From Gammaproteobacteria bacterium (GTDB lineage: Bacteria; Pseudomonadota; Gammaproteobacteria; Steroidobacterales; PWYM01), in the NCBI GenBank assembly GCA_003567855.1, contig PWYM01000237.1, forward strand, positions 5,302-69,301: a DNA stretch of 64,000 bases, given 5' to 3'. Numbering within the stretch: position 1 is the first letter of the stretch; each line of letters opens with the position of its first letter. Shown piece after piece: positions 27,684 through 62,423 of the stretch. Under the pieces are notes generated by a model. It was not told where the DNA came from, made no database searches, and saw nothing but the letters and a program-made list of their open reading frames with translations. The translations under genes were made by a program, and so were the position numbers.

Positions 27684-28529
27684 CTAAAGGGCGCGTTCGA
27701 GCCGATTCAGCCATTCACGGGGATGAGGTGCGGCCGGATCCCGCGCGCGCTCGGCAAGCGCCCATGACCAGGACAGCAGCCGGACCAGCCGCTCGACGTC
27801 AGCGAGTTCACGCCGCGCTGCCGGCAACAGCCCGTTCGCGGCCAGCAGCCGATCCCGCTCCCGGCCGGCGAGCGGCGTGAGCGCGGTGATGCACGCGAGG
27901 TCGAAACGCCTGTCGAACGGCGCCGCGTACTCCCAGTCGACCAGCATCGGCTCGGGCCAGCCGACGACGTTCGCCGGCACGAGGTCATTGTGCGCGAGGC
28001 GGCTGCAGTCCGCGTCGCTGACGAAGTCTTCCAGCTCGCGCGCGAGTGCCGCCAGCCGCACCGCGATTGCGGGGGTGTCGCGCACTGCTGCCGGCAGCGC
28101 TTCGCTGTAGGCCCGCGCGGCGCGCACAGGATCGAACACCGGCATATCGAGTTCGACCGAGTGGAGCATCTCGAGCTTTCGCGCCAGTGCTTCCGCGCCG
28201 GCGGCACAGCCGAGTTCGGCGGGCGACCATGCAGGGTCATCGATCCAGCGCGTGACCAGTCCGCCGTCCTCGCCGAAGTACAGGAGCTCCGGCGCAATGC
28301 CAACGGCCGCCACCCGCGCGAGCACACGGCCCTCGTCGGCGATCGACGTTGCGAACCTTGGTGCCAGTGGCGCAAGCCGCGCGAGCAGCGCCCCTTCGCG
28401 GCTTTGTACCCGGTAAACGCGGTGTCGGGCAGAGGCGACACGCTCGGCGCCCCACCAGCCCTGCACGTTCGCGCGTGCGAGCAATGTCCCCAGCGCGGGA
28501 TCCGGAACAGGCGTACCGGAGCCGTTCAC
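27684..28529 (-). CDS. APH/choline-kinase-family phosphotransferase, candidate thiamine kinase
   Basis: Brenner motif LAHNDLVPANVV followed by LVDWEYA. The GTG start overlaps the PnuC stop (GTGA). It is the last gene of the TPP-riboswitch operon, and E. coli ThiK belongs to this fold family. Confidence 0.65.
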   Translation of the reverse strand: MNGSGTPVPDPALGTLLARANVQGWWGAERVASARHRVYRVQSREGALLARLAPLAPRFATSIADEGRVLARVAAVGIAPELLYFGEDGGLVTRWIDDPAWSPAELGCAAGAEALARKLEMLHSVELDMPVFDPVRAARAYSEALPAAVRDTPAIAVRLAALARELEDFVSDADCSRLAHNDLVPANVVGWPEPMLVDWEYAAPFDRRFDLACITALTPLAGRERDRLLAANGLLPAARRELADVERLVRLLSWSWALAERARDPAAPHPREWLNRLERAL

Positions 28530-29140
28530 GCCGTCGCCTGCGCGAACTCACGCCGGACGAGATCACGTCGCCACGCGATGTAGCCGAACACGATGATCAC
28601 GAGGTAGGCGCCGAACAGCAGTGCCGTCAGGTACAGCTCGCGGCTGAGATAGAGATAGATGTTGAGCGCGTCGATCACGAACCAGTACAGCCAGTTCTCG
28701 AGCACCTTGCGGGCGATCATGAAGGTTGCGACCAGACTCGCCCAGGTCGTGAACGAGTCGAGGTACGGCAGTTCCGCATCGGTCCAGCCGCTCAACCACC
28801 AGCCGCTTGCCAGGCTCGCGGTGATGACGCAGACGAGCACGTACAGGTGCCGACGCACCGGCCAGACCGAGACCCGCACCCCGGCGCCTCCCGCACCCCC
28901 GCGCGTCCACTGGTGCCAACCGTAAATGGCCATCACCATGTAGAACAGCTGCAGCCCGGACTCCATGTACAGCCGCGCCGACGCGAACACGAACAGGAAA
29001 ATCGTCGTGCTGACCAGCGCCGCCGGCCAGCAGAGGATGTTCTGGCGCACCGCCAGCAGCAGGTAGGCCACCGCCAGCACCACCGCCGTGGCCTCCCACA
29101 GGTTCACCGCCTGCGCCGCAGCGAGCAGCGGGTCGATCAC
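28526..29140 (-). CDS. pnuC: PnuC-family transporter (nicotinamide-riboside/thiamine type; the thiamine-type PnuT role is inferred from context)
   Basis: 204 aa, about 7 hydrophobic helices, Trp-rich motifs (YGWHQW, WTDAELPYLDSFTTW, NWLYWFVIDALN) typical of PnuC. The GTG start overlaps the upstream stop (GTGA). Confidence 0.8.
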   Translation of the reverse strand: MIDPLLAAAQAVNLWEATAVVLAVAYLLLAVRQNILCWPAALVSTTIFLFVFASARLYMESGLQLFYMVMAIYGWHQWTRGGAGGAGVRVSVWPVRRHLYVLVCVITASLASGWWLSGWTDAELPYLDSFTTWASLVATFMIARKVLENWLYWFVIDALNIYLYLSRELYLTALLFGAYLVIIVFGYIAWRRDLVRREFAQATA

Positions 29141-29414: not shown

Positions 29415-31484
29415 TCAGAAGCCGTAACTGACGGTCACCCCGACCTGGCGCGGATCACCCCGGCGCACGTAGAGGCGGTCGGCGAAATCCGGCGGCTCCA
29501 GCCCGAAGAAGAACCCGCGTACCGCGTAAGTCTGCTGCAGCAGGTTGCGACCCCACGCCGAGACGCTCCAGCGCTCGCCTTCCCAGCCGACCCGGGCATT
29601 GACGAGGTTGTAGCTGCTCGAACGCTGGTCATGACTGTTGGAGAAATAGAACGCGTCGCGTCCGTTGACCTCGACGCGTCCGAACCAGCCACCGGCGTCA
29701 CGATACTCGAGTCCCAGCGAGTACTGGTAGTTCGGCGCGTGGGCCTGGTCACGACCTACCGGGCCGCCCGGAAACTCACGGAACTCGGTCTCCAGGAGGC
29801 CGACCGATGCCAGCAGCCGCCAGTGCGGCATGAACTGCCACGCGACGTCGGCCTCGACCCCGTAGTTGAACCCGCGCGCGGCGTTGTCGGTGAAGAACAC
29901 GAACGACAGCGGGTCGGCCGGATCGACCTGCAGTGAAGTATCGACCTGCTGGTCTCGGCGCAGCATGTAGAACGCCGCGGCATTTGCCTGCAGACGCCCG
30001 TCCAGCCAGCGACCGCGGATGCCGGTTTCGAAGTTCCACAGGTACTCGGTGTCGAACTCGCGCCGGCCCGCGGGAATGGAGAGGCCGAGGTTGAAACCGC
30101 CGGCCTTGTAGCCTCTCGACGCCGACGCGTACGCGGTGAGCGCATCGGTTGCGAACCAGCTCAGCTCCACGGCACCGCCGAGCATGCTCTCACGCGGGTC
30201 GAAATCCAGCCCCTGCGTGTCGCGGTACTGCGCCCGCCGCTGTTCGAGTCGCAGGCCGGTGGTCAGCTGCCAGCGCTCGGCGAGCGAAAAGTCCAGTTCA
30301 CCGAAGATGGCGAGATTGTCCGCGCGGTAGCGGCTGTCGAGCTCGCGGAACACCGCCTCGTTGAACAGGTCGAGGAAGACGTTGTCCTCGCGAAGGCGCA
30401 TCGCGTAGGCGCCGACGATCCAGTCGACGCGCCCGTCGGCGAACCCGGTGCCGGGCTCCGACATCAACCGCAGTTCCTGGTTCCAGGTGCGCCGCCGACG
30501 GTCCGTGCTCGAGAAGAAATCGTACGGCGCGAAGTCTCCCCAGAACGCGTCGTTGCCCCAGTCACCGTCGAAACTCACGAGAATGTCGGAGTCGGCCCAG
30601 CTCGAGATGCTGACGACGCGCACGTCACCGGGCACCCAGTTCACGCGCAGCGAGGACGCGCGCGATTCCTGCACATCGCGTCCGGGGCGGTCGGACTGCG
30701 TCGTGAAGCTGTTATCGACCGCGAAGGCGTCGTAGCCGTTGTCCAGATCCACCCACATCAGCGTCAGGTCGACCTGCAGCGTATCGTCAGGTTCGAAGCG
30801 CAGGCGGCCGCGTGTCGTCAGTTCGTCCCGGTTGTTCGTATCGCTGCGATCGAGGAACGCGTTGTACCGGAAACCGTCACTTTTCCAGCGGTGCGCCGCG
30901 ATGCGATAGCTGAACCGGTCGTCGATCGGGCCGCCGAAGGCCACCCCCGCGGCGCGGACGTTGTCACCGCCTACGGTGAGTTCGCTGTCGAACTCGAACT
31001 CATCACCCGGCGCACGGGAACGCATGTAGACGAGCCCGGCCAGCGCATTTGCGCCGTATCGCGTGCCCTGCGGCCCCCGCAGCACCTCGACCTGTTCCAT
31101 GTCGAACAGCGTCGCCACGGTACCGATGCCACTGAAGTCGACATCGTCGATGATGAAACCCACCGACGGGTTCGGCGCGCCCTCGTACTGGCTGCGCTCG
31201 CCGATGCCGCGAAGCTGCAGGAAGCGCGGCCGCGACGATTCTCCGGACCAGTTCAGGTTCGGCACCAGCATCAGCAGGTCCTCGAAATGCTGCACGCCGG
31301 CATCGGCGAGCAGACGCTCATCGAGCACGGTGATGCTGCCGGCGATACGGTCGAGGGTGTCGCTGCGGAAATCGGCGGTGACGACGATCTCCTCGAGCGG
31401 CGGGCGGTCGGCGGCGAGCGCCGGCGCGCTCGCGAGCGCGGCCGCGACGCCGAGCGTGGCGGGCTTGATGAATGCACGGGACAT
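29415..31484 (-). CDS. TonB-dependent receptor (TBDR-2), TPP-riboswitch controlled
   Basis: Signal peptide (...SAPALAAD), plug motifs (EEIVVTADF, VEVLRGPQGTRYGANALAGLV), barrel, and terminal ...VTVSYGF. It lies directly downstream of the riboswitch. Confidence 0.92.
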   Translation of the reverse strand: MSRAFIKPATLGVAAALASAPALAADRPPLEEIVVTADFRSDTLDRIAGSITVLDERLLADAGVQHFEDLLMLVPNLNWSGESSRPRFLQLRGIGERSQYEGAPNPSVGFIIDDVDFSGIGTVATLFDMEQVEVLRGPQGTRYGANALAGLVYMRSRAPGDEFEFDSELTVGGDNVRAAGVAFGGPIDDRFSYRIAAHRWKSDGFRYNAFLDRSDTNNRDELTTRGRLRFEPDDTLQVDLTLMWVDLDNGYDAFAVDNSFTTQSDRPGRDVQESRASSLRVNWVPGDVRVVSISSWADSDILVSFDGDWGNDAFWGDFAPYDFFSSTDRRRRTWNQELRLMSEPGTGFADGRVDWIVGAYAMRLREDNVFLDLFNEAVFRELDSRYRADNLAIFGELDFSLAERWQLTTGLRLEQRRAQYRDTQGLDFDPRESMLGGAVELSWFATDALTAYASASRGYKAGGFNLGLSIPAGRREFDTEYLWNFETGIRGRWLDGRLQANAAAFYMLRRDQQVDTSLQVDPADPLSFVFFTDNAARGFNYGVEADVAWQFMPHWRLLASVGLLETEFREFPGGPVGRDQAHAPNYQYSLGLEYRDAGGWFGRVEVNGRDAFYFSNSHDQRSSSYNLVNARVGWEGERWSVSAWGRNLLQQTYAVRGFFFGLEPPDFADRLYVRRGDPRQVGVTVSYGF

Positions 31485-32238: not shown

Positions 32239-32386
32239 GACGAACTCCTGTAGACGGGGTGGGTGTCGGGCGGACTCGGCCCGTCCTGACGGACGGGCCG
32301 GCCACATCCCGGGTCACGCTGGTCTTCGACCGCCAGTGCCGCCGACACCGTGCGCGTGACGCCGCGCCTCTCCCCAGAGAAATCGA

Positions 32387-32714
32387 TCAGCGTGCCTCCT
32401 GGCGCAAATGATCGCCCAGCAGCGCATTAAACCGCGATGCCGCGATGCGTCCGAGGCGCTCCGCGACGCCGCCGACGCGCTTGTAGCGCAGAATATCGTT
32501 GATCATGTCGCGCGAAACAAGCTTCGGGTCGGCAAACAGCTCGGTAAGCACCGGCTTGAGCTCACGCCGGTCGCGATCGCCTCCTGGCCCGCATAGAGGT
32601 GCAGGAAGCCGGGAATGTCGCCGGTGGTGTTCTCGGTGTGGATACGATCCTCGAAGTCGCGGATGGTACGCATCGCCGGTAGGCGTCGAGGAGCTGGTCT
32701 GGCGAGAGCTGCAT
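32387..32714 (-). pseudogene. Remnant of an acetoin/2-oxoacid dehydrogenase operon: E1-alpha (acoA-like) N-terminus joined to an internal AcoC-like (E2, alpha/beta-hydrolase type) segment
   Basis: MQLSPDQLLDAYRR (ATG at 32714), then a 1-nt frameshift, then MRTIRDFEDRIHTENTTGDIPGFLHLYAGQEAIATGV (E1-alpha N-terminus). At about 32563 it switches frame into ELKPVLTELFADPKLVSRDMINDILRYKRVGGV..., which matches the LKP..LFADP.LV.R.M..D.LK.KR..GV block of AcoC. TGA at 32389-32387. Confidence 0.6.
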
Positions 32715-32784
32715 GCTTCCCCCTGCAGGATCGTTCCGCCATTCTAGCCTGCACCGGTCACAACGTGAGGTTGTGGGGCGAGCC

Positions 32785-32820
32785 ATGCGTCATGGCCGCC
32801 TTAAGGCGGCCATGACGCAT
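32785..32820. repeat. Perfect 36-bp spacerless palindrome
   Basis: ATGCGTCATGGCCGCCTT|AAGGCGGCCATGACGCAT. The two 18-nt arms are exact reverse complements. It yields the same peptide (RHGRLKAAMTH) in ORFs on both strands. Confidence 0.95.
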
Positions 32821-32855
32821 CAGCCACGACGCGTGGCGCGCGGCCAGCGGATACA

Positions 32856-34520
32856 ATGCCAGGCGCCGCCCCCCAACCGGAACCGACTGGAGAGCCCTTG
32901 GCCGCCGCAGAACCGATCCAGGCCGGCGCGCTCGCGCCACTCAGGAGGCCGGTGTTCCGGGCGCTGTGGATCGCCATCTTCATCTCGTCGCTCGGCACCT
33001 GGATGCACGAGGTAGGCGCCGGCTGGCTGATGAGCTCGCTTGCCCCCGACCCGTTCATGGTTGCGCTGGTCCAGTCCGCGGTCGTGCTGCCGGGCTTCTT
33101 CCTTGCGCTGCCCGCCGGCGCGCTCGCCGACATGGTCGATCGCAGGATCTACCTGATCGTCGTGATGTGCTGGCAGATCACCGTCGCGGGGACGCTGGCG
33201 GTGATGACGGCTCTCGGGCTCGTCGACAGCCGCACGCTGCTGGCGCTGACCTTTGCGATGGGCATGGGCACCGCGATGATGATGCCTGCGTTCAGCGCGG
33301 TCATCCCCGACCTCGTGCCACGCCGCGAGCTGACCGCCGCACTGACACTCAACAGCATCGCGATGAACACCACGCGCGCGCTCGGACCGGCGCTGGCCGG
33401 TGTGCTGATCGCGATCGCCGGTCCGGCGGTGGTGTTCGCGTTCAACTCGGTCAGTTTTCTCGCGCTGCTCGCGGTGCTGATCCCGTGGCGCAACACCCAG
33501 CCGCGCAGCACGCTGCCCGGGGAACGATTCTTCGGCGCCATCCGCACCGGTCTGCGTTTCGCCGCGCAATCGCCGGCGCTCAAGGTCGTGCTGGTACGCA
33601 CGCTGGCGTTCTTCGGCATGGGCAGCGTGCTGTGGGCGTTCCTGCCACTGATCGTGCGGGAACAGCTCGGCGGCGGTCCCCAGGCCTATGGCCTCGTGCT
33701 CGGCTCGGCCGGTGCCGGTGCGGTGATCGGCGGACTCAACCTGCCCCGGCTGCGCAATCGGTTCAGCGGCGACCAGATCATGACATATGCGACCTTCACG
33801 CTCGTCACGGGGCTGATCGGTCTTGCATTCCTGCCGACCATCCCGCTGGTCGCGCTCGCGATGGTGCTCGCCGGCAGCGCATGGATCGCCGCAGTCTCCA
33901 CGCTGCAGGTCGCCGCCCAGCTCGCTTTGCCCGCGTGGGTGCGCGCGCGCGGCCTCGCAATATTCCTGACGTGCTTCATGGGTGCGATGGCACTGGGCGC
34001 GGCGCTCTGGGGCCGCGTCGCATCGCTGACCGACATCCCGACGGCGATCGTCGGTGCGTGCGTGTTCGGCATTCTCGCGTGGCTTGCGACCGCGCGGCTG
34101 CGAATCGAGCGGCATGACGAGCACGACCGCTCGCTCGCGGTCCCGGTGCCGGTACCCGAACTCGAGGTACCCGTCGCCCACGAACGCGGCCCGGTCATGG
34201 TCGAGGTCACCTACACGATTCCACCTGGCAGTGTCGCCGCTTTCCAGCGCGCGATGCGCGACGTCCGCCGCATGCGCCTGCGCAATGGCGCGGTGAACTG
34301 GAACCTCTTCCAGGACACCGCCGACAGCAGGCGCTGGACCGAGGTCTTCATCGACGACACGTGGCTGTCACACCTGCGCCAGCACCATCGCCTGACGGTC
34401 GAGGACCGCGCGATCAAGGCGCACGCCGACACCTTTCACGTCGGCGACGGCCCGCCGCACGTGCGGCACATGATCGCGCGCAACCCGCGCAAGCGCCGAC
34501 GGCGCTGGCAGTGGCTGTGA
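32856..34520 (+). CDS. MFS transporter with an extra about 130-aa C-terminal soluble domain
   Basis: About 12 TM helices beginning LAPLRRPVFRALWIAIFISSLGTWM, then a non-membrane tail (VMVEVTYTIPPGSVAAFQRAMRDVRRMRLRNGAVNWNLFQD...RWTEVF). Alternative upstream and downstream starts are possible. Confidence 0.8.
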   Translation: MPGAAPQPEPTGEPLAAAEPIQAGALAPLRRPVFRALWIAIFISSLGTWMHEVGAGWLMSSLAPDPFMVALVQSAVVLPGFFLALPAGALADMVDRRIYLIVVMCWQITVAGTLAVMTALGLVDSRTLLALTFAMGMGTAMMMPAFSAVIPDLVPRRELTAALTLNSIAMNTTRALGPALAGVLIAIAGPAVVFAFNSVSFLALLAVLIPWRNTQPRSTLPGERFFGAIRTGLRFAAQSPALKVVLVRTLAFFGMGSVLWAFLPLIVREQLGGGPQAYGLVLGSAGAGAVIGGLNLPRLRNRFSGDQIMTYATFTLVTGLIGLAFLPTIPLVALAMVLAGSAWIAAVSTLQVAAQLALPAWVRARGLAIFLTCFMGAMALGAALWGRVASLTDIPTAIVGACVFGILAWLATARLRIERHDEHDRSLAVPVPVPELEVPVAHERGPVMVEVTYTIPPGSVAAFQRAMRDVRRMRLRNGAVNWNLFQDTADSRRWTEVFIDDTWLSHLRQHHRLTVEDRAIKAHADTFHVGDGPPHVRHMIARNPRKRRRRWQWL

Positions 34521-43653: not shown

Positions 43654-46155
43654 GTGAACGAGTACGTCTACACCCGTCGTCCGTTGCGCGCCGCCGTCAG
43701 GCGCGCGTTGTTCATTTCCGGCGTGGGCGCCTGCCTGGCAGCGCCGACCTACGCACAGGCCCCCGCGCAGCAGCCGGAGACGCGCGCCGTCGACGAGATC
43801 GTCGTCACCGCCCGCCAGCGCGCAGAGCTGCTGCAGGACGTGCCCGCGTCGGTGACGGCGTTCACCGCGGCCGACATCGCCGACGCCGGCATCGACCGTG
43901 CCGAAGACTTCATCGGGCTGACCCCTGGCGTGTCGATGATCAACAGTACCGAGGCCGGTGATCTGCAGGTCAACATCCGCGGCATCAACACCTCGCGCGA
44001 TGCCGAGACCAACTTCGCTTTCATCGTCGACGGCGTACTGCTGACGAACCCGAACGCCTTCAACCAGGAATTCGCGCATATCGAGCAGATCGAGATCGTG
44101 AAGGGCCCGCAGGGCGCGCAGTACGGGCGCAACGCGTCGGCCGGCGCGATCATCGTCACCACACGCGAACCCGGCCCGGAACTCGAGGGCCGCGTGCGGG
44201 CCGGTTACGGCAACAACAACGCGTTCACCGCCAATGCCGCGTTCTCCGGCCCACTGGTCGAGGACACGATGTACGGCGGGATCAACTTCGCCTATCGCGA
44301 CAGCGACGGGCACTTCCGCAATGTGACCACCGGCAACAAGGACGTCGATGACTACAACGAGTGGTCCATCGACGGCCGCCTGATCATCGAACCCACTGAT
44401 GCGCTGAAGCTCGACTTCAAGGCGCGCTACAGTGAAATCGACAGCGGCGCGATCGGTTTCAACGCGGCGTTTGCGATCCCCGGACTGGTCGAGGGCCTGG
44501 AAGGCGTGTTCGGCCGACCGGCCACCGAAGCTTTCATCGACGTGAACGAGCACCAGTTCGTCTACCAGAACAACGTCGTGCCACAGAACGAACAGGAAAA
44601 CATCAACCTGTCGCTGAAGGCCGATTACGACCTCGGCTTCGCGATGCTCACCGGCATCGTCGCGTACAACGACCAGGAGCAGTTCTTCCTGACCGACGGC
44701 ACGAGCGCGGCGTTCGGCATCTATTTCGCAGAGCCCACGTGCCTGGCCAGCCTCGAGCAGACGGCCGCGGAGTTCGAACAGCCGCCGCCGTTTTTCAACT
44801 TCGGCAGTCCGGATGCTCAGCTCCTGCCCGCGTACTCGAACACGACCTGCGACGGTTACCAGTACCAGGTCCGCAACCAGGAGGACCTGTCGCTGGACGT
44901 ACGCCTGACCTCGATGGGTGACGGCCCGCTGCGCTGGATCGCCGGCGCGAACTTCGTCGACATCGACCGGACGGTGATCGTCTCGCAGGGTGCCGACCTC
45001 GACCAAGGCTTCCTGCTGCAGCCTTTCGTGCCGGCCGACGGCCCTAATCCCACCGACCTGCTCTACCACGACGAACTCGACAACAAGGTCTGGGCGGCAT
45101 ACGGCAGCATTGACTACGACCTGCGGGACGACCTGGAGCTGTCGCTCGCGCTGCGCTACGACCGCGAGCGTCGCAAGGTCAGCAACCGCGTGCCCACCGA
45201 CGCGGTCGCCCCGTTCATCAATCCGCTTGGGATCGACAACCCGCCGATCAATCCGGCGCTGCTGTTCGCCGACAGCATCGAAGACCGCAGCCGCACCTTC
45301 AGCCAGTGGCAACCCAAGGTCAGCGTGAGCTGGTCGGCCACCGACGAGCTGAGCCTGTACGCGACCTACGGCGTCGGCTTCCGCAGCGGCGGCTTCAACT
45401 CGCAGGGCGTGGAGGCCACGATCGAGGTGTTCTACACCGACGCTTTCGGCGCCCAGCTGTTCAACGCCCGCGACGAGTTCGAAAAGGAAGTCTCCAAGTC
45501 TTTCGAGGTCGGCTTCAAGGCCGAACTGCTTGACCGGCAGCTGCGCATTAACGGCGCCGCTTACCGCACCAAGGTCGACGACATGCAGTTCTTCAACTTC
45601 TTCGCCGGCCCGTTCGGTCTGCTGCGCGTCGTGACCAACATCGACGAGGTCGAGATCGACGGCATAGAGCTGGACTTCCGCTACAACGTCAACGACTACT
45701 TCACGCTCTATGGTGGCGCCTCCTACCTGGACGGCGAGATCAAGCGCAACACCAACCGCCCGTTCACCGTCGGCAATGACGTCCCGATGGCGCCCAACTA
45801 CACCTTCAACCTTGGCGGCCAATTCACTGTCCCTGTCACCCCCGACATGGACTTCGTCGCCCGTACCGACTGGATCGGCACCGGCAAGACCTGGTTCTCG
45901 GAGGTACAGAACAACACCGTACCGACGCTCTTCGGACTCGACGGCGACTTCTCCCGCACTCGGCGAGATGCGTTCGAGGTCGTCAACGCACGGTTCAGTC
46001 TGCAGTCCGAGAACTGGCGTGCAACGCTTTGGGCACGTAACCTGTTCGACAAGAAGTACCTGCAGGAAGTCATTCCGGCGCCGGAGTTCGGGGGCTCTTT
46101 CATCCATGACTCGCCACGCCGCAGTTACGGCATCGAACTGAGCTACATGTTCTGA
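43654..46155 (+). CDS. TonB-dependent receptor (TBDR-3)
   Basis: Signal peptide (...CLAAPTYAQA), plug (DEIVVTARQRAELLQDVPASVTAF, IEIVKGPQGAQYGRNASAGAI), barrel, and terminal ...IELSYMF. The GTG at 43654 has GAGGA 7 nt upstream; ATG at 43627 is the alternative. Confidence 0.9.
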   Translation: MNEYVYTRRPLRAAVRRALFISGVGACLAAPTYAQAPAQQPETRAVDEIVVTARQRAELLQDVPASVTAFTAADIADAGIDRAEDFIGLTPGVSMINSTEAGDLQVNIRGINTSRDAETNFAFIVDGVLLTNPNAFNQEFAHIEQIEIVKGPQGAQYGRNASAGAIIVTTREPGPELEGRVRAGYGNNNAFTANAAFSGPLVEDTMYGGINFAYRDSDGHFRNVTTGNKDVDDYNEWSIDGRLIIEPTDALKLDFKARYSEIDSGAIGFNAAFAIPGLVEGLEGVFGRPATEAFIDVNEHQFVYQNNVVPQNEQENINLSLKADYDLGFAMLTGIVAYNDQEQFFLTDGTSAAFGIYFAEPTCLASLEQTAAEFEQPPPFFNFGSPDAQLLPAYSNTTCDGYQYQVRNQEDLSLDVRLTSMGDGPLRWIAGANFVDIDRTVIVSQGADLDQGFLLQPFVPADGPNPTDLLYHDELDNKVWAAYGSIDYDLRDDLELSLALRYDRERRKVSNRVPTDAVAPFINPLGIDNPPINPALLFADSIEDRSRTFSQWQPKVSVSWSATDELSLYATYGVGFRSGGFNSQGVEATIEVFYTDAFGAQLFNARDEFEKEVSKSFEVGFKAELLDRQLRINGAAYRTKVDDMQFFNFFAGPFGLLRVVTNIDEVEIDGIELDFRYNVNDYFTLYGGASYLDGEIKRNTNRPFTVGNDVPMAPNYTFNLGGQFTVPVTPDMDFVARTDWIGTGKTWFSEVQNNTVPTLFGLDGDFSRTRRDAFEVVNARFSLQSENWRATLWARNLFDKKYLQEVIPAPEFGGSFIHDSPRRSYGIELSYMF

Positions 46156-46199
46156 CCCTGCGGCGTGCCGCGCCGCGGTACTGCAGTGCTGCCCCTGGA

Positions 46200-46230
46200 G
46201 GCCCGGACGGTACGCCGTCCGGGCCTTTTT
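46200..46230 (+). terminator. Rho-independent terminator after TBDR-3
   Basis: GGCCCGGACGG-tacg-CCGTCCGGGCC followed by TTTTT. Confidence 0.8.
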
Positions 46231-59555: not shown

Positions 59556-59750
59556 CACAAGCTCCAGAAACCGGTTGGAGCGGACCGGCGGGCCCACCCG
59601 GGTGCAGCGCGAAGGCGCCGGACGCGAAGTATCGATGACCGGGACATGCCGACACAAGGCCAGCCATCGCGCCGGACCATCACCGGCTGCTGAAGTGTGG
59701 CGCCGGCTCTGCGATCATGCGGTTCGGTCTTCAACCCGGTGCATGACCAC

Positions 59751-62423
59751 ATGTCCGTACGCCATCTCGATCACCTGTTCCGCCCGCGTTCGGTCGCGGT
59801 ATTCGGCGCCTCCGACCGCCCGCTCAGCGTGGGTGCCGCCGTCATGGACAACCTGCTCGCCGGCGGTTTCGGCGGACCTGTCATGCCCGTCAACCGGCGA
59901 CACGACAACGTACGCGGACAGCGCGCATGGCGCGATGCCGGCACGCTGCCGGAGGCACCCGATCTCGCGGTAATCTGCACCCCGCCGTCGACGATCCCCG
60001 GGATCGTCGACGCGGTCGGACGCCTCGGCACGCGCGCGGCTGTCATCATCAGCGCGGGCTTCGCCGAAGCCAGCGCCGAGGCCGGACGCGACCTCGAGGC
60101 CGAAACGCTCGCCGCGGCAGGGCGCCATCAGGTGCGGCTGCTCGGTCCGAACTGCGTGGGCCTGATCGTCCCGGCGCTCGGACTCAACGCGAGCTTTGCA
60201 CCCGGCATGGCGGCGCCCGGCGACATCGCCTTCGTGTCGCAGTCCGGCGCGATGGCCACCGCGGTGCTCGACTGGGCGAGCGAGCGCCATATCGGCTTCT
60301 CGCACTTCATCTCGATGGGCAACTGCCTCGACGTGGACATCGGCGACGTGATCGACTGGCTCGGCGCAGACCCCGGCACGCGCTCCATCCTCGTCTACAT
60401 GGAGTCGTTGCGCGAGGCGCGCAAGTTCATGTCGGCCGCCCGCGCAGCCGCCCGCAACAAGCCACTGCTGTTCGTGAAGGCCGGCCGCATGCCCGAGGGT
60501 GCCCGCGCGGCGGCGTCACACACCGGCGCACTCGCCGGCAGTGACGCCGTCTACGAGGCCGCGATACAGCGCGCCGGCGCGCTGCGCGTGCGCGGCATCG
60601 AGGATCTGTTCGACACGGCCGAGATCCTCGGCCGCGGCCGACCCATCGGCGGACCCCGCCTGGCGATACTCACCAACGGTGGCGGGCCCGGCATCCTCGC
60701 CACCGACGCGCTCGTCGAACAGGGCGGCACGCTGGCCGAGCTTGCCGATGCAACCACGCAACGCCTCGATGCGCTGCTGCCGGGCAACTGGTCGCGGGCA
60801 AACCCCGTCGACATCATCGGCGACGCCCCCGCGGAGCGCTACCGCGGCGCACTGCTGGCGCTGCTCGACGACCCGGGCATCGACGCCGTGCTCATCGTGC
60901 ATGCACCCACCGCAATCGTCGCCAGCGAAGCGGTCGCCGAGGCACTTGCGGAAGTGGCGACCACCGCCACCAAGCCCGTACTGGGCTGCTGGCTGGGCGG
61001 CGCGTCCGCGCGCCGCGCAGCGGGTATCTTTCACCGCGCCCGGCTGCCGGCGCTGAACTCGCCCGAGGACGCGGTCGCAGCGTTCCTGCGCATGCACGCG
61101 TACCGACGCAACCAGGCGGCGCTGATGGAGCTGCCCGCGCGCCCCGCGGCGGGCGGACCGACCGATCACGACACCACCGCCCGGACGATCGCGCGCGCCC
61201 GGGCCGAGTCGCGACGCTGGCTGAGCGAGTTCGAATCCAAGGCGGTGTTCGAGGCATGGGGCATCCCGGTGGTACCCACCCGCATCGCCCATACGCCCGA
61301 CGAGGCCGCAGAAATTGCCCACGAGATCGGTCTGCCCGTGGCCGTGAAGGTGCTGTCACCGGACATCACGCACAAGTCCGACGTCGGTGGCGTGGTGCTG
61401 GACCTCGAAACCGCCGACCAGGTTCGCGACGCGGCACAGGGCATTGCACGTCGCGTCGAACGTCGCGGCAACGCGCGTCTGGACGGCTTCTCGGTGCAGG
61501 CCATGGCGCGCAGGCCGGGGGCACACGAACTCATCGTCGGTGCCCATACCGATGCGGTGTTCGGGCCGGTCCTGGTGTTCGGTGCCGGCGGCACCGGCGT
61601 CGAGGTCATCGACGACAGCGCGATTGCGCTGCCGCCACTCAACATGGCGCTGGCACGTCAGCTCGTCGAGCGCACTCGGATTGCGCGCCTGCTGGCCGGC
61701 TACAGACAGCAGCCGGCTGTTCACATGGACGCACTGTGCGAGGTGCTGGTCCGCGTGGGTGAGCTCGTCTCTGCTCAGCCCGAGATCGAGTCGCTGGACA
61801 TCAACCCGCTGCTCGCCGATGCCGACGGCGTGGTCGCACTAGATGCACGCATCGCACTGCGCTCACCCGAAGACGGCCCGCGGCCCGAACTCGCGATCCT
61901 GCCCTACCCGCAGGCTCTGGAAGAGCACGCCGTCTTCGACGGACACGAAATCATGCTGCGCCCGATCCGACCGGAAGACGAACCTGCACACCGTGAATTT
62001 TTCTCAAGCCTCACCGACGAAGACGTACGCTTTCGCTTCTTCGGACTGACCCGACTGTACGAACATTCACAGCTCGCACGCTATACGCAGATCGACTACC
62101 TCCGCGAGATGGCGTTCATCGCGCAGGAAACGCAAACACGATCACCAAGAACACTCGGTGCCGTGCGCGCCGTCAGCGATCCCGACCGCATCGAGGCGGA
62201 GTTTGCGATCGTCGTACGCTCCGACATCAAGGGCCGCGGACTCGGCAGGCTGCTGCTCGAAAAACTGGTGCGCTACTGTCGCGACACCGGCATTCGGCGG
62301 ATAACCGGCCAGGTTCTGCAGCAGAACCGGCGGATGCTCTCACTGGCCCGTGACCTGGGCTTCACGGTGGGGCCGGCAGAGGATGGGGTGCACGAGGTCG
62401 TGCTGGAAACGGGGCGCGACTGA
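59751..62423 (+). CDS. Bifunctional NDP-forming acyl-CoA-synthetase-like / GNAT protein (Pat/PatZ-type protein lysine acetyltransferase)
   Basis: N-terminal CoA-binding region (LFRPRSVAVFGASDRP...), succinyl-CoA-ligase-like and ATP-grasp regions, and a C-terminal GNAT with VRSDIKGRGLGRLLLEKLV. 890 aa from the ATG at 59751. Confidence 0.88.
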   Translation: MSVRHLDHLFRPRSVAVFGASDRPLSVGAAVMDNLLAGGFGGPVMPVNRRHDNVRGQRAWRDAGTLPEAPDLAVICTPPSTIPGIVDAVGRLGTRAAVIISAGFAEASAEAGRDLEAETLAAAGRHQVRLLGPNCVGLIVPALGLNASFAPGMAAPGDIAFVSQSGAMATAVLDWASERHIGFSHFISMGNCLDVDIGDVIDWLGADPGTRSILVYMESLREARKFMSAARAAARNKPLLFVKAGRMPEGARAAASHTGALAGSDAVYEAAIQRAGALRVRGIEDLFDTAEILGRGRPIGGPRLAILTNGGGPGILATDALVEQGGTLAELADATTQRLDALLPGNWSRANPVDIIGDAPAERYRGALLALLDDPGIDAVLIVHAPTAIVASEAVAEALAEVATTATKPVLGCWLGGASARRAAGIFHRARLPALNSPEDAVAAFLRMHAYRRNQAALMELPARPAAGGPTDHDTTARTIARARAESRRWLSEFESKAVFEAWGIPVVPTRIAHTPDEAAEIAHEIGLPVAVKVLSPDITHKSDVGGVVLDLETADQVRDAAQGIARRVERRGNARLDGFSVQAMARRPGAHELIVGAHTDAVFGPVLVFGAGGTGVEVIDDSAIALPPLNMALARQLVERTRIARLLAGYRQQPAVHMDALCEVLVRVGELVSAQPEIESLDINPLLADADGVVALDARIALRSPEDGPRPELAILPYPQALEEHAVFDGHEIMLRPIRPEDEPAHREFFSSLTDEDVRFRFFGLTRLYEHSQLARYTQIDYLREMAFIAQETQTRSPRTLGAVRAVSDPDRIEAEFAIVVRSDIKGRGLGRLLLEKLVRYCRDTGIRRITGQVLQQNRRMLSLARDLGFTVGPAEDGVHEVVLETGRD

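Follow-up and report, generated by a model that had tools for sequence, protein, structure and literature searches.

The window, by which we mean the whole stretch of 64,000 nucleotides analysed here, contains a perfect 36-bp palindrome in the spacer between two putative divergent promoters, and we consider this palindrome to be probably (at roughly 60 %) the product of a template-switch mutation specific to the lineage of the window. The two closest relatives (L030 from Logan SRR7901806 and L042 from JGI 3300050212) do not have the palindrome. All changes specific to the window are confined to the left arm, and the right arm is collinear with the homologous sequence of the relatives. The palindrome is most likely a new natural example of an already known mutational mechanism. 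A selected function seems unlikely, because the palindrome is not conserved, has no regulator nearby, no second site and no RNA context, and occupies the least constrained part of the spacer. The features of the locus are collected in Table 1.

Table 1. Features at and around the palindrome (positions of the window; L030, L042 and L031 are related loci described in the text)
Feature	Position	Strand	Remarks
Decayed acoA remnant, frameshifted and truncated	32335..32714	-	Seen in the translation and by tblastn with AcoA residues 16-100 of L031, E = 1.5e-17
Leftward promoter -10 box TAGAAT (reverse complement of ATTCTA), putative	32741..32746	-	Within the invariant CATTCTAGCC
Inverted repeat CACAAC-GTGAG-GTTGTG (CACAAC-N5-GTTGTG)	32759..32775		Conserved in L030 and L042; unique in the window
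Perfect spacerless palindrome	32785..32820		18+18 nt, CTTAAG centre
Left arm, probable derived copy (reverse complement of the right arm)	32785..32802		Carries every window-specific change
5-nt insertion GTCAT	32789..32793		Window lineage only; exact complement of ATGAC 32812-32816
Inner stem, left half GGCCGCC, putative pre-existing quasipalindrome seed	32794..32800		Majority state in the putative reconstruction
Right arm, probable ancestral sequence and template	32803..32820		No window-unique column
Inner stem, right half GGCGGCC, putative pre-existing quasipalindrome seed	32805..32811		Majority state ?GCGGCC
MFS promoter -10 box TACAAT, putative	32852..32857	+	Conserved upstream of the MFS gene in relatives
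MFS_3-family transporter gene	32898..34520	+	Likely start TTG 32898, with GGAGAG at 32886-32891

The palindrome consists of ATGCGTCATGGCCGCCTT followed directly by AAGGCGGCCATGACGCAT. It is an exact inverted repeat of 18+18 nt with 100 % complementarity, no spacer and CTTAAG at the centre, as had been described in an earlier reading of this DNA made without database searches (hereafter the sequence-only reading). The C residues at 32784 and 32821 do not lengthen it. No other spacerless palindrome in the window reaches more than half its length, the runners-up having arms of 9 nt. The same reading had judged such a palindrome very unlikely to occur by chance, and the numbers agree with this judgement. 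With the base composition of the window (67 % G+C), spacerless palindromes with arms of at least 18 nt are expected about 6.7e-6 times per 64 kb and about 4e-4 times per 4 Mb, and none with 18-nt arms appeared in 100 shuffles of the window. Folded as single-stranded DNA, the 36 bp form a hairpin of -22.9 kcal/mol, which corresponds to z = -8.8 against shuffled sequences.

Three further independent assemblies from the same species-level population contain the identical palindrome. They are the MAGs GCA_007127295.1 and GCA_007136465.1 from NCBI and one assembly from ENA, and in all three it is internal to the contig. Elsewhere, the contig of GCA_007136465.1 differs from the window by 6 SNPs and the ENA contig by 13 SNPs. 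Two Logan contigs (L040 and L041) both start at 32791, so that their first 30 nt (1-30, corresponding to 32791-32820) lie inside the palindrome. We take the Logan assemblies to be built on a de Bruijn graph with k=31, and a break at 32791 would then be expected, because such a graph must branch at a perfect palindrome of 36 bp. As the break falls at the expected branch point, the raw reads of those runs must contain the palindrome as well. An assembly artefact is thus ruled out by the independent contigs with SNPs elsewhere together with the Logan breakpoints. In practical terms, k=31 de Bruijn assemblies are interrupted exactly at the sixth base of the palindrome, which makes it a cause of contig breaks. 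It is unchanged in four haplotypes, but only about 0.05 SNPs are expected in 36 nt, so this invariance carries no weight.

The genes to the left of the palindrome are a TonB-dependent receptor gene with a TPP riboswitch, mogA and the minus-strand remnant of acoA. To the right lie the MFS_3-family transporter gene, a mobA-like gene, moaE, moaD, moaC and genes for acyl-CoA dehydrogenases. The distance of 71 nt to the decayed acoA start given in the sequence-only reading was essentially right, as we measured 70 nt to the minus-strand ATG at 32714-32712. The 36 nt that it gave for the distance to the MFS start had been counted to ATG 32856, the start of the long ORF, and needs to be revised. This ATG overlaps the TACAAT box and is not conserved, being out of frame in L030 and replaced by ATA in L042. 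The real start is probably TTG 32898, which yields a 540-aa product and is the start of the gene call in every assembly; counted from there, the palindrome ends 77 nt upstream of the gene. The 540-aa form was found through its cluster and is present on 10 contigs. The 554-aa form had no exact match in the look-up, because the annotated start is TTG 32898.

The promoters were assigned by phylogenetic footprinting of the -10 boxes. A TACAAT or TAGAAT box, flanked by G on both sides in most loci, precedes the MFS gene in L030, L042, L031, L032, L033, L034 and L036. In the window, the palindrome ends 31 nt before this conserved box, and, relative to the transcription start deduced from the box, its centre would be at about -61.5. 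On the opposite side, the stretch CATTCTAGCC (32740-32749) is invariant across the window, L037, L030 and L042. The leftward TAGAAT promoter within it likely drives the amidase gene in the relatives and the aco scar in the window. A consensus scan of 32500-33000 returned neither a full sigma-70 promoter nor a terminator; the TACAAT box did not give a full sigma-70 match because its -35 element is poor. A sigma-54-like GG-N10-GC on the minus strand at about 32843-32860 was also considered and rejected because of its poor -12 element, its overlap with the conserved sigma-70-type -10 box and the lack of a sigma-54 arrangement in L031. Judging from the two boxes, the palindrome would sit between back-to-back promoters and upstream of both -10 elements, so it should be outside both transcripts. 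Just upstream of the leftward TAGAAT box sits the repeat CACAAC-N5-GTTGTG, which from its conservation seems a better candidate for an operator of the divergent promoters than the palindrome does. The last base of this repeat (32775) is polymorphic in the population, with G>A in L037 and a difference also in L038.

The MFS genes of L030 and L042 are 95 % identical to that of the window at the nucleotide level. In both relatives the flanks of the palindrome are conserved, including both -10 boxes, the Shine-Dalgarno region and CACAAC-N5-GTTGTG, and at the position of the palindrome there is a homologous segment of 31 nt which is not palindromic. In the alignment, the row of the window reads ATGCGTCATGGCCGCCTT AAGGCGGCCATGACGCAT, that of L030 reads GCGC-----GGCCACCTG CGCGCCACCATGACGCGA and that of L042 reads ACGC-----AACGGCCTG TATGCGGCGATGACGCCT. 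The segments of the two relatives fold no better than shuffled sequences (z = 0.46 for L030 and -0.65 for L042). The sequence-only reading had proposed that absence of the palindrome from relatives with otherwise conserved flanks would mark it as probably a recent accident without function, and this is the pattern seen in L030 and L042. More distant relatives (L031-L036, MFS 70-73 % identical) have a much shorter spacer between the amidase and MFS genes, in which about 130 nt including the segment of the palindrome are absent, and they cannot root the comparison. The comparison of the window, L030 and L042 is thus unrooted and has two close outgroups only. The neighbouring amidase protein was used to look for further close relatives; its best matches had 51-52 % identity and added no new outgroups.

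The two arms of the palindrome compare differently with the relatives. The flanks (32740-32784 and 32821-32897, 127 columns) contain 6 events unique to the window, 12 unique to L030 and 10 unique to L042, and all three lineages differ in one. Among the 18 columns of the left arm, 7 columns representing 3 events are unique to the window, 2 are unique to L030 and 3 to L042, and there is no column in which all differ. The 18 columns of the right arm include none unique to the window, 4 unique to L030 and 1 unique to L042. All three lineages differ at its positions 32803, 32805 and 32819, so the ancestral right arm is partly known. In the flanks the window is 84 % identical to L042 and 83 % to L030. 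The identity of the left arm, with its 5-nt gap, is below that of the flanks, at 8/18 to L042 and 9/18 to L030 (Fisher p = 5e-4 and 4e-3, respectively). The right arm aligns without gaps and is identical at 14/18 positions to L042 (p = 0.50 against the flanks) and at 11/18 to L030, which is borderline lower (p = 0.053). Since the left arm is far below the identity of the flanks and the right arm is near it, the right arm appears to be old and the left arm appears to have been rewritten as its reverse complement. Taken in reverse complement, the L042 right arm matches the left arm of the window at 14/18 positions without gaps, as counted by hand from the alignment.

The three events specific to the window are C>T at 32786, the insertion of GTCAT and G>T at 32802. 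All three are in the left arm and each of them yields complementarity to the right arm; as a cluster they are marginally above the rate of the flanks (Poisson p = 0.055). The site patterns in the flanks are star-like and the three lineages are approximately equidistant, so the majority state should approximate the common ancestor and, by parsimony, the changes would fall on the branch of the window. The ancestor reconstructed by majority rule reads ACGC GGCCGCC TG?A ?GCGGCC ATGACGC?T, which would contain a GC-rich stem of 6-7 bp. The left half of this stem is GGCCGCC in the window, GGCCACC in L030 and AACGGCC in L042, and the right half is GGCGGCC, CGCCACC and TGCGGCG, respectively. L030 and L042 thus each deviate from the reconstructed stem, and the state of the window acts as the tie-breaker.

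Based on this comparison, we propose that a short GC-rich quasipalindrome GGCCGC(C)...(G)GCGGCC was present in the ancestral and presumably untranscribed spacer between the divergent promoters. A nascent strand, growing in replication or in repair synthesis, would have left its template, taken the complement of the present right arm AAGGCGGCCATGACGCAT from its own sequence or from the other strand at the fork, and then returned. One such event could have replaced the left arm by an exact reverse complement of its partner, introducing the two substitutions and the insertion at once and turning a non-palindromic segment of 31 nt into a perfect palindrome of 36 bp. The switch can be imagined in two variants. 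In the fold-back variant, the nascent bottom strand would pair on the GGCCGCC/GGCGGCC stem with a 4-nt loop, and outward extension would produce C>T and GTCAT. Such a simple fold-back on the inner stem leaves G>T at 32802 unexplained and requires a whole-arm switch or a second event in addition. In the inter-strand variant, the switch at the fork would span the whole arm and no loop would be needed.

The hallmarks of template switching are present in the locus: a perfect repeat where the homologues do not fold, changes clustered in one arm and including an indel, and a new arm that equals the reverse complement of its neighbour. It has been experimentally established in E. coli that template switching at quasipalindromes renders them perfect (PMC7202029). 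One such event can be enough to create a perfect stem (PMC8794818), and template switching is the proposed source of the excess of perfect inverted repeats in Proteobacteria (PMC5941160). The palindrome resembles the quasipalindrome mutations treated in these studies (the Ripley model; thyA and lacZ reporters of E. coli) in the clustered changes of one arm with an indel, and in the perfect repeat that results while the other arm stays unchanged; a short inverted repeat may have seeded the change here as well. It differs from them in that we infer it from natural variation among metagenome-assembled genomes with two outgroups and did not see it in an experiment. It is also unusually long, with arms of 18 nt, and has no spacer, and this makes an inter-strand switch more plausible than a fold-back within one molecule.

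The same alignment may be read in the opposite direction, the palindrome being ancestral to the lineages of the window, L030 and L042 and having decayed independently in the latter two. In favour of this direction are the instability of long perfect palindromes and the unrooted comparison, and also the fact that no other part of the locus varies as much between L030 and L042 as the homologous segment does (66-70 % identity, with 80-100 % in its surroundings). Moreover, L030 and L042 are sisters in the MFS gene, so the 5-nt deletion that they would share counts as a single event. We nevertheless find this direction quite unlikely and, as far as the aligned sites tell, less parsimonious than a template switch. 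The branch of the window is the shortest in the intergenic flanks (6 events against 12 and 10), which leaves little of a shared L030 and L042 branch for the deletion. Both lineages would also need to have suffered much stronger decay in the left arm than in the right one, and on the side of the window a neutral palindrome would need to have stayed perfect through about 15 % neutral divergence. The palindrome might, on the other hand, be new but not independent of the gene loss next to it. In the relatives an amidase gene lies between aco (or mogA) and the MFS gene (regions compared: 32335-32740 of the window, L030 1-662, L042 3-1220, L031 660-3212), and it adjoins the MFS gene in L030, L042, L031, L033 and L034. 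In the lineage of the window this gene is missing, with no tblastn match anywhere in the window, and only the frameshifted acoA stub remains of aco. The contigs of L030 and L042 end inside the amidase gene, so the state of aco in these two lies beyond them. The palindrome and the loss of the amidase both appear to be derived on the same branch. They would have arisen together if one serial template-switching or break-repair event (FoSTeS/MMBIR-like) had produced the palindrome and the amidase/aco deletions, and the presence of both in the window lineage and of neither in L030 or L042 fits such an event, as does the position of the deletion junction, at or before about 32740 and only about 45-70 nt left of the palindrome. 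We hold this to be very unlikely, since the relatives align collinearly and with good conservation over the 45 nt (32740-32784) that separate the junction from the palindrome, no intermediate genotype is available and co-occurrence on one long branch is weak evidence. Of the suggestions made in the sequence-only reading, that of a recombination hotspot related to the neighbouring deletion came closest to the evidence, in so far as the palindrome looks like an aberrant product of replication or repair in the lineage with the deletion.

The explanations that give the palindrome a role or a mobile origin were weighed against the same relatives. It could be a lineage-specific operator or activator site for a dimeric factor acting on one or both of the promoters, MFS and leftward; it may have been selected step by step, or a template switch may have created it before its co-option. 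The position between two divergent promoters would suit such a site, the symmetry centre at about -61.5 is a classical activator position, the poor -35 element is as in activator-dependent promoters, and the sequence is constant among the haplotypes, which, as explained above, is weightless. We still regard a site of this kind as unlikely, because the closest relatives keep the -10 boxes and CACAAC-N5-GTTGTG but not the palindrome, there is no gene for a regulator in the roughly 3 kb before or 4.6 kb after the MFS start, no second half-site was found at up to 4 mismatches in the 64 kb, and real operators are rarely 36 bp long and perfect. Class I activator sites, such as that of CRP at -61.5 of lac P1, are alike in having a symmetric site near -61.5 (counted here from the deduced start) and a weak -35, but they are about 22 bp long and imperfect, whereas the palindrome is perfect over 36 bp, is not conserved in the orthologous promoters and has no cognate regulator. 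The narrower proposal of an operator or UAS orphaned by the aco deletion is not supported: besides the missing regulator and the absence from L030 and L042 despite conserved flanks, the palindrome is absent from L031, which keeps an intact acoA, and thus it is not a UAS left over from aco. Footprinting in relatives that retain aco, which had been suggested along with this proposal, therefore speaks against it, and L032-L036 are without the palindrome too. A REP, a MITE, another dispersed palindromic element or the footprint of a mobile element would agree with the perfect symmetry, the GC-rich intergenic sequence able to form a stem-loop and the AGCC on both sides, which superficially looks like a target-site duplication. 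We consider this origin extremely improbable. The relatives hold the homologous 31 nt and no empty site, and their right-hand AGCC reads GGCC or CGCC, so that the flanking AGCC is not duplicated there. The search for further copies, which had been recommended as a test for repeats, found none. In the organism itself it covered the 64-kb window, where the half-site has no second copy at up to 3 mismatches and only unrelated matches at 5 mismatches. The 18-mer half-site gave 29 single matches in 185,579 species-representative genomes, scattered over unrelated taxa at about chance level and none of them palindromic. The 10-bp stem core with any 4-nt centre (CATGGCCGCC-N4-GGCGGCCATG) gave 98 unrelated hairpins in metagenome contigs, none centred on TTAA and all with at least 7/36 mismatches, and no match to the palindrome was found in plasmid and phage collections. 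Unlike REP, BIME and MITE families, the palindrome is thus single-copy, has no pattern of empty and filled sites and no family members in the collections searched. An RNA hairpin in the 5'-UTR of the MFS mRNA, which had also been suggested, would be very stable if transcribed, and the same stem might be thought of as a transcription terminator; either role is hardly conceivable. The palindrome should lie upstream of the conserved -10 boxes on both strands, it has no T-run or terminator-like pattern, it is not conserved, and Rfam gave no match to it above noise, only generic hairpins below the threshold such as miRNA precursors.

A template switch in the lineage of the window thus remains the explanation that we prefer, and it has some consequences for how such sequences are interpreted. 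A palindrome in a promoter region may look statistically impossible and still be neither an operator nor a REP nor an RNA element, and here the comparison with relatives diverged by about 5 % points to a replication error made in one step. Such cases document template-switch mutagenesis in uncultured bacteria and indicate that long perfect stems can arise instantly. If the palindrome has any effect, this would be at the level of DNA, because it lies upstream of both -10 boxes: it could extrude as a cruciform when divergent transcription supercoils the DNA negatively, or it could change the spacing of the promoters, between which it adds 5 bp or half a helical turn. We regard it as highly doubtful that a 36-bp site born by a template switch near -61.5, maybe in the same event as the amidase/aco deletion, has since been co-opted, whether by a dimeric regulator or as a supercoiling-sensitive cruciform coupling the promoters. 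Should the palindrome prove to act on the MFS promoter, it would show in a natural bacterial population how a regulatory site is born by template switching in one mutational step. A report on template switching at yeast GRE2 (PMC13100816) describes a similar situation, with an inverted repeat expanded in a promoter region and symmetric sites that dimeric factors can bind; the present case differs from what is described there in being bacterial, and here factor binding or a change in expression is purely hypothetical.

The divergence between L030 and L042 is itself uneven along the locus. Their MFS genes are 98.5 % identical, their spacers 66-82 % and their amidase genes about 82-100 % in patches. 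This mosaic suggests that homologous recombination took place recently and that its boundary lies near the MFS start. In L030 the homologous segment contains a near-direct repeat, GCGCGGCCACC T GCGCGCCACC (GCCACC...GCCACC, L030 747-772). It suggests slippage or a templated change in this lineage too, in which case the site may be generally mutation-prone. Two further resemblances were noted and set aside. A match of 13/18 between the right arm and the spacer of L034 probably reflects the promoter -10 region and was not relied on, and CATGACGCA in the right arm, which resembles the start region of the amidase gene in L033, is too short to interpret.

Several other elements were observed elsewhere in the window. 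The TPP riboswitch (RF00059, 31535-31653, minus strand, 72.3 bits, E = 2.8e-12) lies upstream of the TonB-dependent receptor gene (29415-31484, minus strand), which is followed by an ORF for a PnuC-like transporter (28526-29140) and a kinase-like ORF (27684-28529), both assigned by reading the translations. Together these look like an operon for thiamine uptake and salvage. A second perfect inverted repeat, CGTCGACGATCCC-C-GGGATCGTCGACG, is present at 59986-60012 within an ORF of 908 aa (59697-62423, plus strand). It has arms of 13 nt around a 1-nt centre, with about 0.004 such repeats expected by chance, and it may be another product of template switching, in this case within coding sequence. 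Finally, directly after an ORF ending at 46155, a perfect stem of 12 bp with a 4-nt loop is followed by TTTTT (46199-46226), and this is an ordinary intrinsic terminator.
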